This document shows, one piece after another, positions 542-61,530 of a DNA stretch of 64,000 bases. Under the pieces are notes generated by a model, which was not told the origin of the DNA, did not search any database, and saw nothing but the letters and a program-made list of their open reading frames with translations. The stretch spans positions 10,168,001-10,232,000 of the forward strand of contig CM102287.1 in assembly GCA_046563655.1 (NCBI GenBank), written 5' to 3'. The stretch comes from Yuukianura sp. NJ FZ-2021. Taxonomy: Eukaryota. A program made the translations under genes and the position numbers. The first letter of the stretch is position 1. Every line of letters begins with the position of its first letter.

Positions 542-3358
542 TCAAGCGCCTTGACTTGACGTTGTTGGCGTATTGACGGGTTTGAAATATGACTGAATCG
601 ATCGCATGCCAAATCCTTCTGTCGCCTTTCCCCTCTTCCCCCCTCTGGAATCCTCAGTTGACCTTTGACCTTTCCGCTTCGTTGTTGGCTTAATTCGTTT
701 CGGCAAGGTCACGGGCTCAAACGTTTTCTTGTCGTTTTTGTCCACCGCTGCTGCTAACGGCGGCAAACCGTTGATTTCACGCTGAACGTCTTTGGCATAA
801 TGATAGTCTTTGTGAACTTCAAGGTCCCATATTCTAAATTTTCAAAATTTCAAAAAATTTAGAAAACGAACTTGAAATAACTTAAAATTTTTTGATAACT
901 TACACAATTAATTGTCCACATCTGTCACACTTTTTGGACAAGGCTTTGAGCGGAACTTTTCTGCTTGGAGTGCACGTTGGCGCGGCGTCAGTTTCAGTTT
1001 CAGCAGAGGTCAAAGGTGATTTGGGTGAAGATTTTTCATTTTGAGGATTTTCAATCTGAAAATCTTCATTTTCAGAATTTTGAATCTGAGAGTCTTCATT
1101 TTCAAAATTCTCTAAACTTTCTTTCCCGAGTTGTAAAATGTTTTTATCACTTTCACTCTGGATTGAATTTCTGTTAAAAACTCCTTGGCAAAAGTCTTCT
1201 TCGAAATCACTTTCTCCAAACTTGTTCAATTTTTCAGCAATAAGCTTCTCGCCTTGCGCAATTCGTTCAAAAAAATCTTCAGTGTTTTTTACCACTCCAT
1301 AAAACGGATTTCCAATTCGCTGCTGCAGCGATAGCGCTTGCAGCGATTCTGATTGAAAACTGGATTTGGAAGTTGACGGAGGAAAGAATGATTTGGATGT
1401 TCCCGGTTGGGGTGACAAATCGGCAGAAACGGCGGAAGTGGTCGGATTGCGATGAATTTGAAATGGAATTTGTTGATCGGTGAGGTCAAGGTCACTTGGT
1501 CTTGTGACTGTGCAAGAAGGTTTAGCTTTTTCTGGTTGTTTTGTAAAGAAGGAATCAATTTTCTGAAAAGCGGTGGAACTGAGCTCATGTTCGAATTTAC
1601 TGGCGATTAATCCAAGACTTGTGATGGGCAGGGTACTGTAGTTGGATATGAACAGAAAGTTAATTAAAATTGTTAATTACTCTTAGTTTTTAGCTTCATA
1701 TGCAATAAACATTTGTGCTTACGGATTTCTGAAATAGATTTTTTCAATGACTTGGTAAACTTCGGTGGCCATTCGAACAGAGTCGTATGAAGGATGACCA
1801 CATGATTTAGATATTTGATTTCCATCTTCAAATCTTATGTGCAATGTCAATGATTTGGACCTCCGATTGTTCTAAAAAATGAAAATAGTTGAATGTAGGT
1901 TTGGCAAACTTTGAAAATGTGGAAAATTTTGAAAATCCTTGCCGTTTCAAAGTCCTTTTGAATCCTTTCCACCACTTCAGCGCTCAACTGTTCGATCCAG
2001 TGCTTGATCTGCATTTGCAGAAAAAACAAAATTTAGCACTTTCTCCTTCAAAATCTCAATGAAATTGCAGAATTTTCGAAAATTTATACCTTGTCTAACT
2101 TCCGAAGAGCTTCGGGTCCTGTAAAGTTTTTATTGCAACCGATGGATTTGGGGAGCTGTCGTGCCGTTACTGTTTCGTCGTCATCTCCTTGCGCCAAGTG
2201 ATACAGCCAAGAACTAAAAAATTTTCGAAGTCAAGATGTTTTCAACTTTTTCTAAACTAATGTTAGTTGATATTTTTTTTACCCAGTTTTGTTCCCAAAA
2301 ACTTGAGCCAACTCTTTTTCGCTTAATTTTCCAAGATCCGCCATCGTTTCAATATTCATTTGCTCCAGTAGAATGTCTCCCAGTTTCCCACCCAAGTTAC
2401 GCACTTTCTTCACTGGAGTTGTGGAGTACAGTTGAGCAACTGAGGCAAATGGTAACACCGTCTGCTTATTCGGTTTGTTAATTCCGCATACCAGCTTCGC
2501 CAAAACCTGAAACGAAAGTTGAACGTTTTGAAAAAAGAAAAGTTTGAAAAAGTTTTTGCAAAGTGGTGTCAACATACCTTGTTATGAGCAATTCCTGCTG
2601 AACATCTAAATCCAGTTTTGTCCAGTATTGCTCTCCTCATTTCCCCCACAATTTCAGCACCAATGGCCAACTTCACATCGGCCAAATTCGTCATCCCTTC
2701 GCCTTCTCTGAGCGATTCTAACCATGATTCGGTAGAGTCGTAGCCCAACACAAAGTTTTTGTCCAAATAGTCTTCATTGAGATTTGCCAAAGAAGAAGCG
2801 TAGTTCCAATTGTCCTCGCATGCTGACAAACGTTGTTCCACCATTTGAGTCAAATCTAAATAAGCTTCATCGACTGATGCTCGTTCCACAATCGTCGGGA
2901 ATTCAGACAGAACTTTTATCACTTCTGAGCCTGCTGTACGATATCTACGACAATTCCAAAATTAAATTTAAATTATTTCATTTCCACGAAAAACTGAAAA
3001 GTTTGAAAAAATTTACTTTGTTAGGTCCGCTTTGCCTCGAAGTTCTGGAACTTTGACTAGTATGATTTCTGGGCATGCAGCTTTAGCATCATCTCCTCTA
3101 ATGTGTCTGTTCACACCTTTGTCTCTTGCTTCGTAATTTACAGCAATCAATCTACATTTAACAACATAAGAATATCAATTAACATGTTAACATTCAATTA
3201 AGCTAAATTGAGCTAAAATCTTACGCTCCACCTTTCCATGCATTGTACTGCACTACTCCTGCTGGTTTCCCTATGATTGAAGGATCATCCCTCTCTTCCA
3301 CTTGGACGTAGAAACAATCCATGTCAATTAGTGCTATCACTCTTGCACAATTAGGCAT
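542..3358 (-). CDS. POLH: DNA polymerase eta (Y family), multi-exon
   Basis: Start MPNCARVIALIDMDCFYVQVE; motifs IAVNYEAR, ERASVDEAYLD, SAGIAHNK, NKPNKQT, GGKLG; C-terminal UBZ-like CDRC..H..H and PIP-like MRSIQSYF; GT-AG introns. Confidence 0.93.
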
Positions 3359-3900
3359 TTTAACGATTAATTAACTCACTCAATTAATGTAGTCAAAAAT
3401 TAACATTACAAAACAAAGAAAACGAATTTTCACAAGTTTCTGTTTTGTTTACCTCTTCAATTTAAAAATATTTCGCGGTTTATGCAAATGAAGGTCTCAC
3501 ATTGCCCCTACCAAGACATGAGTCGTCCGTACTCCAATTGGCGGGATTCGAATGAATTTTAAAACCATTTCAATTTTAATTTTGAATTTCCAATTTCGAA
3601 ATTTCGGAAAATTTCGAAGATTTGATTTGATTAGCGATTAATCGTTTTAACTAAGTTCAGTTTCTGTTTGAGTTAATTGGAGTTGGCTGAAGTGAGCAAT
3701 CAAGCAGACTCTTAAGCGTTTCCTAACATTTTCAACAAAGTAAGTGATTTTTTCGGAGTGTCTTTCTTATTTATCGTTAGCGTTTCTTAGTTGTTGTGTT
3801 CTATTTTTTGGGTATCTGTATTTCATTATGTTAATATGTATATATATTTCAATATGTTAATGGATTAATTAACTTCAATTTACAGGTTTAACGGTACAGA

Positions 3901-59990: not shown

Positions 59991-61530
59991 TACTGTAACA
60001 TAATTAATCGAAATTAATTTAAATTAATTGAAAACAACTTAAGCAGAAGATTTCTTTCAAAATTGAAAAGAAAGTAAACAAAAAACAGCAGTTGAAATTC
60101 CTCACCAAAAGTCCAACACGTGTGTAAATTCCAACCTCACCAGCAGATACCAACACAGGAGATTCCAGAACCACCCATGGAATACGTTACACTGTTTTAA
60201 TTCCAGAACATTCCAGAACAATATAAAGAATACAATAAATATAATCTTTAGTTTATTTGTATTACATAAAATAATTAAAGCAATAAATAAAATAATTTAT
60301 AAAAAAGAGAGTAACGGTTGAGCAATAATTGAAATGTGAAGTAATTTCGGTTGAGTGCCCATGTTTGACCTCAGAAACTAAAAAAATAAGGCCCTTGCCT
60401 CCTTTTTTCTTCCCCTCGGGGCAATCCCCATTTCTTTCTTAAGACAATTCCCTACCCCTTGTACTCCTTTACCCTCTATTTAAACCCGATGACCCTACCC
60501 CGGTGACCTTTGACCTGTCTACACAATTCCACAGCATGTACCCACAAATCTCAGCTCATTTCTACCAAAAGTTGGAAACAATTTGGAAAACAAGAAGCCA
60601 TTTTGCAGTGCGCCATTTGTACCCATAAATAAATCCTTACTTCAACCTCCAAAAAGGTGTTTGTAGCAATGAGGCCAGAGGAGGGTTTTTGAGAGGGACG
60701 AGACGAGGGTATTGTTGCTATATTTGGTTCCTTTACTCCCTTTTTGAGGCCACAAACGCAGCTTAGAAGGTTTCTCCCTCATGGCATCACAGCCTCCTAT
60801 ACTCAAAAACGTCGGACATAAGAAGAGGCCACACAACAGCACAGCACAGTTTAGCACAAGGGTGGCTACCAACTGCCATTAAACTAAAACAGTTCAATTA
60901 AACTGAGTCTTAATTGTTAATTTCCAACTGTAATTGGAGCACTTTGTTTATCATATAACTTTTATTACCCGTGGACTGGAGAGTGGTGGATCCTTAACAA
61001 TGGAGTGTCTATAACTCCTAGCGGACTTCCATATACTGCATCGCTTCAACTGCTTTAGCAGAAGAAAGTTGAGAAGAAACAATGCCCAAGTTGATGGCAG
61101 GGCGTCAGCGATTGAGGGGTAAGGGGTCGCAGATCCTAAACAATCAGTCACCCACAGTCTAGATATGAAAGACAAATGATTAATATGCTTAGTAGTGAGA
61201 TAGTACATGTGATACACTTGAGCAATATGTAGACAGCGATCGTACCACTGGCCAGAGGCTGGGGTTCTCGGATTGGTGGGCAACAATCCCACCAATCCGA
61301 CCAATTCGGGAGGAAAGTCAAGGAAGTTAAGGCGCTGGACCAAATCAAACATGCTTTCTTGACTTTCAAGAATGTTGAATGTTGTAGACAAACTGCAAAA
61401 TAGTTAGCTCCATGTTTGAACATGACTCAGCATGTGGCTCAGTTTGTGCTTGATTTCGATTTGTTGACCTCCCGAGTTGAAAAGTTGACCTTAGAAGTTC
61501 GAAGTTTCCTAGAATAGATAAGATTTCAAA

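Follow-up and report, generated by a model that had tools for sequence, protein, structure and literature searches.

The question raised by this locus is why one short word should recur so often within a small stretch of springtail DNA. The window, by which is meant the whole stretch analysed (64,000 nucleotides of Yuukianura sp. NJ FZ-2021; assembly GCA_046563655.1, contig CM102287.1, forward-strand positions 10,168,001 to 10,232,000), carries many exact copies of AGGTCAAAGGTCA. The word consists of two AGGTCA half-sites in direct orientation, one nucleotide apart (direct repeat with 1-nt spacer, DR1). The DR1 element AGGTCA-n-AGGTCA is bound by HNF4, RXR/USP homodimers, COUP-TF/Svp, TR2/4 (HR78) and PPAR-RXR, and the word in the window is presumably the canonical DR1 of the HNF4, RXR/USP, COUP-TF/Svp and TR2/4 type. 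An earlier note on this DNA had offered two alternatives, a nuclear receptor used as a mark or a biased mutational process. The enrichment of the word is real and a chance origin is excluded or disfavoured. The nature of the enriched unit, its placement and the explanations for it are taken up below.

Enrichment of the DR1 word

A pattern search of both strands located 15 exact copies in the 64 kb, seven on the forward and eight on the reverse strand. They lie at all 15 starts listed in the earlier note, which had spoken of at least 15. No match was obtained in 100 dinucleotide-preserving shuffles of the window. Allowing up to two mismatches raised the number of matches to 34, where 2.28 are expected. 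Besides the 15 exact copies these comprise 10 with a single mismatch and nine with two; of the nine, five overlap another copy at a shift of 7 nt, and about four are independent. Two of the near copies named earlier (1007 and 53677) were confirmed; the third is at 62842 and not at 62843, and all three differ from the word by one mismatch. Receptor-tolerated changes make up four of the 10 one-mismatch copies against seven of the 39 possible changes, a difference that is not significant by hand arithmetic.

The degenerate pattern RGKTCA-N-RGKTCA has 21 sites against 0.28 expected, and 15 of the 21 are one perfect sequence. The inverted form (IR1; inverted RGKTCA with a 1-nt spacer) is found at six sites against 0.11 expected. 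Five of these are perfect AGGTCA-A/T-TGACCT palindromes, which we take to be the canonical EcR-USP palindrome, and the sixth carries GGGTCA; four of the six lie within larger GGTCA clusters. The hexamer AGGTCA itself occurs 108 times against about 30 expected (3.4-fold). Among its 18 single-base variants only GGGTCA (1.7-fold) and ACGTCA (1.9-fold) are noticeably raised; AAGTCA (1.1-fold) and AGTTCA (0.8-fold) are not.

The 6680 copy is contained in an independent short-read contig of the same sample (X1 record 3), which spans 5993-6798 with no differences and no gaps. An assembly artefact as the origin of the motif is ruled out by this contig. Contigs of a second organism cover 5912-7017, 10746-11275 and 11833-12337 at about 95-99% identity. 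Among 40 of the 1066 substitution differences between read contigs and the window that were listed, none falls inside a DR1 copy. Joints of read contigs at word sites give weak hints of a genome-wide occurrence. In the literature, supplements not being covered, no report was found of the DR1 word in springtails, nor of its genome-wide enrichment in any invertebrate.

The enriched object is a pair of heptads

The window contains 194 GGTCA sites, 108 of them in 39 clusters (neighbours 25 nt or less apart) and 86 isolated. The isolated sites are not above the roughly 106 expected in total; the whole excess resides in pairs and arrays. For same-strand AGGTCA pairs within 15 nt the spacer is 1 nt in 16 of 48, and it is A in 15 of these 16. 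For inverted pairs within the same distance it is 1 nt in five of eight, and always A or T. Thus the enriched object is the pair geometry and not the half-site.

The unit is a sharply bounded 15-16-mer of two AAGGTCA heptads, (A)AAGGTCA-AAGGTCA(A), and seven of the 15 copies have the 16-mer AAAGGTCAAAGGTCAA in common. Alignment of the copies left two informative flank positions, -2 (A in 12 of 15) and -1 (A in nine, G in five), and none further out. A blastn comparison of 200 nt on either side, with GGTCA masked, returned only overlaps between neighbouring copies and short AT-rich words, so that no carrier sequence surrounds the copies within 200 nt. The longest word common to both flanks, looked for as a sign of target-site duplication, averages 3.7 nt, against 3.85 nt at 3000 control positions. 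The lack of flanking homology noted earlier, and with it the view that this is no intact transposable element, is borne out. A transposon relic is likewise excluded or disfavoured: there is no common consensus beyond the core, no flank similarity and no target-site duplication.

Tandem Repeats Finder (TRF) reports the copies with period 7, 100% match and 2.3-2.6 units, for example at 658, 6677, 9244 and 10000. All nine exact heptad-dimer loci have 2.3-2.6 units and no perfect AAGGTCA trimer exists in the window. Only one degenerate heptad array, at 23130-23166, reaches 5.3 units. A further array, at 10955-11015, has period 6 and 10.2 units, and a 3+3-nt length polymorphism between sample contigs (10991/10993) falls inside it, among 12 of 306 indels listed.

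Short tandem repeats are common in the window, with 215 TRF rows and 203 exact dimers of period 5-12. The heptad is nevertheless out of line with other heptamer units, which generic slippage would not give: of the 25 exact heptamer dimers, which comprise 15 distinct units, AAAGGTC accounts for nine and the runner-up for three. Since one heptad provides nine of 25 dimers, perfect trimers are missing and an inverted form exists, generic duplication or microsatellite dynamics are insufficient. Something is specific to the AAGGTCA heptad beyond ordinary slippage.

Placement of the copies in genes

Exons and introns were called by combining reading frames with Pfam matches and alignments to homologues. 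The DNA is that of an animal, and its introns are short. The nearest named proteins to the SF3A1 exon at 4976-5665 are those of Orchesella cincta (72%) and Allacma fusca (63%), and Folsomia candida is nearest to the TTLL9 exon among named arthropods.

By a reading of each site, eight of the 15 copies lie in short introns, three in 3' untranslated regions (3'UTRs), three in coding sequence and one is intergenic (Table 1), in agreement with the placement described earlier. The 3'UTR copies (6680, 10937 and 11002) are all within 80 nt of the stop codon. Those in coding sequence occupy unconserved, unconstrained segments: the POLH tail (659), an esterase loop (22726) and an orphan protein (52154). 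The peptides quoted in the earlier note were recovered, namely krKGQRSt in the POLH tail, a 10-letter peptide in the esterase, EVKGQ/GVKGQ in the orphan and EVKGR upstream of SMC_N. With respect to transcription, six of the non-coding genic copies are sense and five antisense. Five of the 15 copies (four independent loci) lie within 170 nt of a stop codon against about 1.5 expected, a rough figure that is suggestive only. Convergent gene ends enclose the large arrays at 10937-11014 and 54266-54310, and the 6680 copy as well.

At the coding cluster of esterase E1 (22726), the Pfam COesterase match covers 74 residues against 60 profile positions, which suggests that the extra residues are an insertion at the cluster. 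Only the first exon of E1 is alike in E2 by tblastx (about 88%), and the paralogue is uninformative on this insertion. TTLL9 has a GGTCA cluster within an insert of at most about 116 residues (window 50350-50700, reverse strand) between the DWRK and YVVQKYI motifs. Four springtail-like TTLL9 proteins have a long low-complexity insert there; on alignment its position is common and its sequence unrelated. The proteins of Lottia, amphioxus and Strigamia have only about 10-20 residues at this position. Part of the insert may be an unrecognised in-frame, stop-free intron starting CAG/GTCAAT. One 71-nt TTLL9 intron, which starts GT-TTGACCTTTGACCT, is made almost wholly of antisense heptads.

A gene-family block free of copies

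No exact copy is found in the 27.5 kb between 23144 and 50757, whereas the density outside would predict 9.8 (independent loci) to 11.3 (all copies). The probability of zero copies is about 1e-5 to 6e-5. The gap from about 23.2 to 50.7 kb reported earlier thus stands, and so does a sharp difference between conserved genes and the gene-family block, the absence of which the earlier note had regarded as damaging to its proposal. That note had called the block CAP/vWA duplicates. VWA was found, but among 22 scanned open reading frames (ORFs) of at least 150 amino acids there was no CAP domain; COesterase and NIDO were present instead.

The block consists of few-intron secreted-protein paralogues and repeats resembling transposable elements. 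The fraction of 50-nt windows below 30% GC is 0.23 inside and 0.21 outside, and exact tandem dimers number 2.44 per kb inside and 3.73 per kb outside. The first exon of esterase E1 with its upstream region (25046-25432) is duplicated at about 88% before a second gene (29647-30033), the rest having diverged. As the duplicated first exons are only about 88% identical, the block is not too young to have acquired copies. Neither non-coding DNA nor tandem duplication is in short supply there, so the distribution tracks gene class or chromatin/expression state. A functional mark and a mutation linked to germline transcription would each predict such a distribution.

A proposed origin and the points against it

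Both alternatives of the earlier note survive, and it is partly supported, the evidence being split. For a dimeric binder speak the enrichment of both DR1 and IR1 at 1-nt spacing, the lack of any excess of isolated half-sites and the gene-class-specific distribution. For a copying process speak the single perfect sequence at 15 of 21 sites, the dominance of direct orientation and the one length-polymorphic array.

The account we favour joins the two, and is offered tentatively, at somewhat less than even chances: short tandem duplication would make the sites, and a dimeric binder of nuclear-receptor type would retain them. The element, the looser GGTCA arrays and AGGTCA-A/T-TGACCT would in this way populate the unconstrained transcribed DNA of conserved, intron-rich genes, by which we mean short introns, 3'UTRs and disordered coding linkers. 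Tandem duplication or slippage, rampant in the window, would yield perfect head-to-tail heptad pairs and arrays; it is this step that the pair and array structure and the one length polymorphism demonstrate. AAGGTCA pairs would then be kept, or made far oftener than others, through recognition by a binder that reads two AGGTCA half-sites one base apart, direct or inverted. We infer retention from the three observations named above for a dimeric binder, to which IR1 contributes because tandem duplication cannot make it. A role of the bound protein as mark, repressor or insulator of broadly expressed genes is conjecture, and the 'chromatin or architectural mark' of the earlier note is, for the DR1 word, pure conjecture.

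Several observations weigh against this account. The dominance of one perfect sequence among the degenerate-pattern sites points to copying rather than to selection from random sequence; real receptor site sets are usually degenerate. Fourteen of the 15 copies are in inferred transcribed bodies, three of them coding, rather than in promoters. Direct, inverted and everted pairs within 15 nt stand at 48:8:7, as slippage alone would predict. Degenerate GACCT arrays with exact DR1 pairs are also present in contigs of a non-arthropod animal, and these fit a general repeat phenomenon as well as a conserved binder.

Nor does the nuclear receptor encoded in the window offer itself as the binder. Its gene (11016-14110, reverse strand) has a zf-C4 DNA-binding exon at 13676-13927 (E 6.7e-16). 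The end of the ligand-binding domain, at 11019-11279, has NR2E1/TLX as its best solved relative (E 4.5e-18). The P-box, read across a short intron, is CDGCSG (TLX-type), which we take to prefer AAGTCA; as AAGTCA is not enriched, this receptor is no candidate. The gene holds three exact and three near DR1 copies, one of the near copies in the intron that splits the two zinc fingers.

Alternative explanations

A purely mutational micro-repeat ranks close behind the two-step account, being only a little less probable than it. On this view AAGGTCA would be unusually liable to tandem duplication by 7 nt (and 6 nt), or to copying from a repair template, where DNA is transcribed in the germline; its pairs and arrays would be neutral, a form of 'cryptic simplicity', and their resemblance to a receptor site would be coincidental. 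The saturation of the window with short tandem repeats and the perfect head-to-tail form of the copies are what it would predict, and it accounts better than the two-step scheme for the dominance of the perfect sequence and of direct orientation. One array is degenerate, of mixed 6- and 7-nt units and length-polymorphic. Copies lie only in unconstrained sequence, including the lineage-specific TTLL9 insert; other words (GTAATTAC, AAATTTTGAA, ATCGATTAC) recur in introns; and like arrays are present in a distant animal. However, generic duplication cannot give one heptad nine of 25 dimers while isolated half-sites stay at background. The unit number is near fixed and perfect trimers are missing, unlike in slipping microsatellites, and the six IR1 sites are beyond the reach of tandem duplication. 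The gene-family block has a similar tandem-dimer density yet no DR1, and we know of no mechanism that singles out the AAGGTCA heptad.

Less probable again is a reading in which a DR1/IR1-reading receptor, or a like dimeric binder, is a pervasive gene-body mark in this springtail lineage. Selection would keep perfect sites, about one per 2-3 kb, in introns, 3'UTRs and coding linkers of conserved, broadly expressed genes. The sites would be excluded from lineage-specific secreted-protein gene clusters, and a receptor site would have acquired a new architectural or insulating use.

It is improbable that the copies are by-products of transposable elements, whether excision footprints (retained target-site duplications of an element targeting AAGGTCA), solo 3' tails of 5'-truncated retroelements or remnants of tiny miniature inverted-repeat elements. 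A retained 7-bp duplication would leave exactly two heptads, and the many perfect and few decayed copies (15 exact, 10 with one mismatch, about four independent with two) look young. Some retroelement tails are short tandem repeats, and one short element of very high copy number is present in the window, at 11471-11589. Yet on neither side of the copies is there homology within 200 nt, information is zero beyond -2 and no flank repeat resembles a target-site duplication. The window showed no element, whole or in part, with the heptad at its flanks, the block rich in transposable elements has no copies, and no superfamily with a strict 7-bp target of this kind is known to us.

Patch insertion during double-strand-break repair, from a telomerase-like template, an abundant RNA or a satellite, is slightly more doubtful still. 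The copies have sharp edges, no target-site duplication, either orientation and about 2-2.6 units, and they sit in tolerant DNA; sharp edges, lack of duplication, few units and either orientation are hallmarks of short interstitial telomeric inserts. The heptad, however, is not G-rich and hexapod telomeres are of the TTAGG type. IR1 forms and mixed 6- and 7-nt units misfit a single template, no long heptad array was seen, and a search of the whole window gave no Rfam match at gathering score and no tRNA.

Least probable of all is a signal at the RNA level, with the sense word acting at 3' ends or in the message and the antisense word (UUGACCUUUGACCU) supplying a branch-point-like UUGAC and a pyrimidine tract to very short introns: all six exonic copies are sense, three of them 80 nt or less past a stop codon, and all five antisense copies are intronic, three ending 3-10 nt before a 3' splice site, with one intron almost wholly of antisense heptads, but stop codons alone nearly bar antisense copies from coding sequence (two of three frames closed), any site in a 60-70-nt intron is close to a splice site, three intronic copies are sense and one copy is intergenic.

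If a protein does read the sites, a classical hormone-receptor element would be present at very high density inside gene bodies, and this would offer a way to test the marking or insulation of housekeeping genes in a compact arthropod genome. Should the sites have no reader, the word would be a clean case of a sequence-specific mutational drive writing one 15-mer into many genes, and into proteins as well. Regulatory meaning would then be absent from a perfect consensus site, which matters for the motif-based inference of regulation.

Comparison with known systems and other genomes

In sequence the word is identical to the idealised DR1 consensus, including the A spacer, and the pair geometry is enriched. 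DR1 sites described elsewhere are sparse and degenerate in sequence, and most belong to promoters or enhancers of metabolic or developmental genes, whereas the copies in the window occur about once per 2.4 kb in housekeeping-type gene bodies, including coding sequence and 3'UTRs. Two direct RGKTCA with a 1-nt spacer are thus present, and the degeneracy and regulatory-region placement of receptor sites are absent. Because these last two are missing, we do not file the word, which matches DR1 in sequence and geometry, as a response element. The PAL1/IR1 ecdysone response element AGGTCA-A/T-TGACCT is bound by EcR-USP, and the six window sites match its form; as a difference, four of them lie within larger GGTCA clusters, some coding.

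Cryptically simple sequence, in which short tandem duplications are the main class of small insertions, is normally locus-specific. The copies resemble it in their head-to-tail units, mixed direct and inverted repeats, length polymorphism and placement in unconstrained DNA; the heptad differs in recurring at 13 independent loci and dominating the heptamer dimers. With short interstitial telomeric repeats the copies have in common two to few units, sharp edges, no target duplication and either orientation, but no telomeric repeat with this unit is known, and the word also comes in inverted forms. Heptanucleotide short tandem repeats are likewise made of head-to-tail identical units, and the abundance of the window unit is unlike that of other heptamers.

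The nearest documented parallels are receptor motifs multiplied by short interspersed elements: HNF4alpha sites in Alu (PMC3252374) and Nr5a2 sites in SINE B1 (10.1101/2022.05.17.492379). In these as in the window a receptor-type motif reaches high copy number through copying and lies near many genes, but the Alu and B1 sites reportedly ride on recognisable elements of about 150-300 bp, whereas the window word has no carrier.

Metagenome contigs contain at least 120 loci with two DR1 words 1-31 nt apart, on high-GC prokaryote-like and on low-GC animal contigs. Among the loci listed, those on high-GC contigs are plain (AGGTCAA)n arrays. Many low-GC contigs (0.36-0.42) have dense degenerate GACCT arrays beside laminin G, SNF2, myosin and OATP exons. 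One low-GC contig has a CHD1L exon; the named proteins that match it best come from amphioxus, hemichordates, nemerteans and echinoderms. None of the loci listed is homologous to the window outside the arrays. From these animal contigs it follows that AGGTCA arrays holding perfect DR1 pairs are not peculiar to springtails. Long degenerate GACCT arrays with perfect DR1 words were seen in the non-arthropod animal contigs L013 (1-600), L056 (1080-1500) and L035, with a ~195-nt higher-order repeat in L013 and ~27-nt units in L056.

Gene map of the window

Sites and genes are collected in Table 1.

Table 1. Positions of GGTCA-type sites and of genes in the window. A slash marks an exon-intron or intron-exon boundary.
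Feature	Position	Strand	Context
exact DR1, coding	659..671	-	POLH-like C-terminal tail; encodes KGQRS, ~110 nt before stop
exact DR1, 3'UTR	6680..6692	+	SF3A1; 6 nt past TAA stop
exact DR1, intron	9244..9256	-	antisense, 61-nt epimerase-like intron; ends 10 nt before 3' splice site
exact DR1, intron	10004..10016	+	sense, middle of 62-nt epimerase-like intron; donor GAG/GTCAGC
array, nine GGTCA half-sites	10937..11014	-	exact DR1 at either end (10937, 11002); starts 1 nt past the nuclear-receptor TGA stop, between two convergent genes
exact DR1, intron	12058..12070	-	sense, from intron base +5 (CAG/GTAGAGGTCAAAGGTCA) of nuclear-receptor gene
three G-spacer DR1 variants	16563..18479		16563 AGGTCAGGGGTCA, 17037 AGGTCAGAGGTCA, 18467 GGGTCAGAGGTCA; stretch without exact copy
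cluster, seven half-sites	22726..22785	-	exact DR1 (22726) and IR1 (22741); coding, esterase E1 C-terminal exon, 16 residues
heptad array, 5.3 units, 86% match	23130..23172	+	exact DR1 (23132) and IR1 (23160); antisense in esterase E1 intron, adjoining TTTCTAG 3' splice site
IR1 AGGTCATTGACCT adjoining DR0 pair	23818..23830		esterase E1 ORF region
cluster, five half-sites including IR1	50488..50529	-	14 residues in TTLL9 ORF, unconserved springtail-specific insert
five half-sites, two exact DR1s (50757, 50780)	50750..50792	+	antisense, filling most of the 71-nt TTLL9 intron
exact DR1, intron	51082..51094	+	antisense; ends 3 nt before TTLL9 3' splice site (TGACCTTTGACCTCAG/A)
exact DR1, coding	52154..52166	+	orphan ORF; encodes EVKGQ beside EINSQ tandem repeat
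cluster, six half-sites including IR1 (54282)	54266..54310		between convergent 3' ends of orphan (+) and P4H (-)
exact DR1, intron	56467..56479	-	sense, first P4H alpha intron, ~35 nt before 3' splice site
isolated perfect IR1 palindrome AGGTCAATGACCT	58093..58105		
exact DR1, intergenic	60504..60516	-	between divergent DUS-like (-) and SMC6 (+)
mucin-like gene	ends 394	+	Pfam-based gene map
POLH	from 545	-	Pfam zf_UBZ in ORF 545-841; IMS/HhH domains upstream
SF3A1	to 6673	+	Pfam-based gene map
DUF7027 gene		-	Pfam; listed between SF3A1 and epimerase-like gene
epimerase-like gene	9020-10612	+	Pfam Epimerase in ORF 9254-9496
nuclear-receptor gene	~11016-14110	-	Pfam zf-C4
esterase E1	22560-25400	-	Pfam COesterase
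block of esterase and NIDO-VWA genes			after esterase E1; Pfam COesterase, NIDO, VWA
TTLL9	to 51492	-	exon phases checked against TTLL9 homologues in alignment
orphan gene	ORF 51667-52329	+	without Pfam family match
prolyl 4-hydroxylase alpha (P4H)		-	Pfam P4Ha_N on ORFs either side of first intron
DUS-plus-dsRBD (DUS-like) gene		-	divergent from SMC6
SMC6		+	SMC_N domain

Other recurrent words and repeats

Introns of three genes (9478-10451, 11270-11330 and 49466-50000) consist of tandem units, such as repeated GTAATTACAG, built on the palindrome GTAATTAC, and each of these units looks like a 5' splice site and also like a 3' one. AATTAC occurs 23 times in the 8-12 kb bin and 27 times in the 48-52 kb bin, compared with 0-7 in the others, so that intron 'words' are local to genes. 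A second recurrent word family is the palindromic AT-rich AAATTTTGAA(AA), with 50 occurrences, often in short tandem or inverted intron runs such as those at 836-866, 5894-5935, 10204-10246 and 23379-23675.

The cAMP response element (CRE) palindrome TGACGTCA is present eight times against 0.7 expected (486-571, 29456, 29587, 34548, 45451, 50253 and 52958). The mucin-like gene and POLH converge at their 3' ends, and a 30-nt tandem repeat lying between them holds two of these copies. Another heptad, ACTCATG, forms short tandem arrays at 54009-54040 and 41193 that include the AP-1-like TGAGTCA, one of them at the convergent orphan/P4H 3' junction about 230 nt from the six-half-site GGTCA cluster.

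A coding tandem repeat in a NIDO-VWA gene (34855-35362, reverse strand) has 16 units of 24 nt (86% match) followed by seven of 18 nt, and is the source of the window's other top-ranking k-mers. A very high-copy element of about 115-130 nt lies at 11471-11589, in a nuclear-receptor intron, and at 44184-44567 (2.1 tandem units), in the gene-family block. Its summed contig depth is about 94,000 against about 300 elsewhere, and back-joints of 113-117 nt indicate tandem copies elsewhere.

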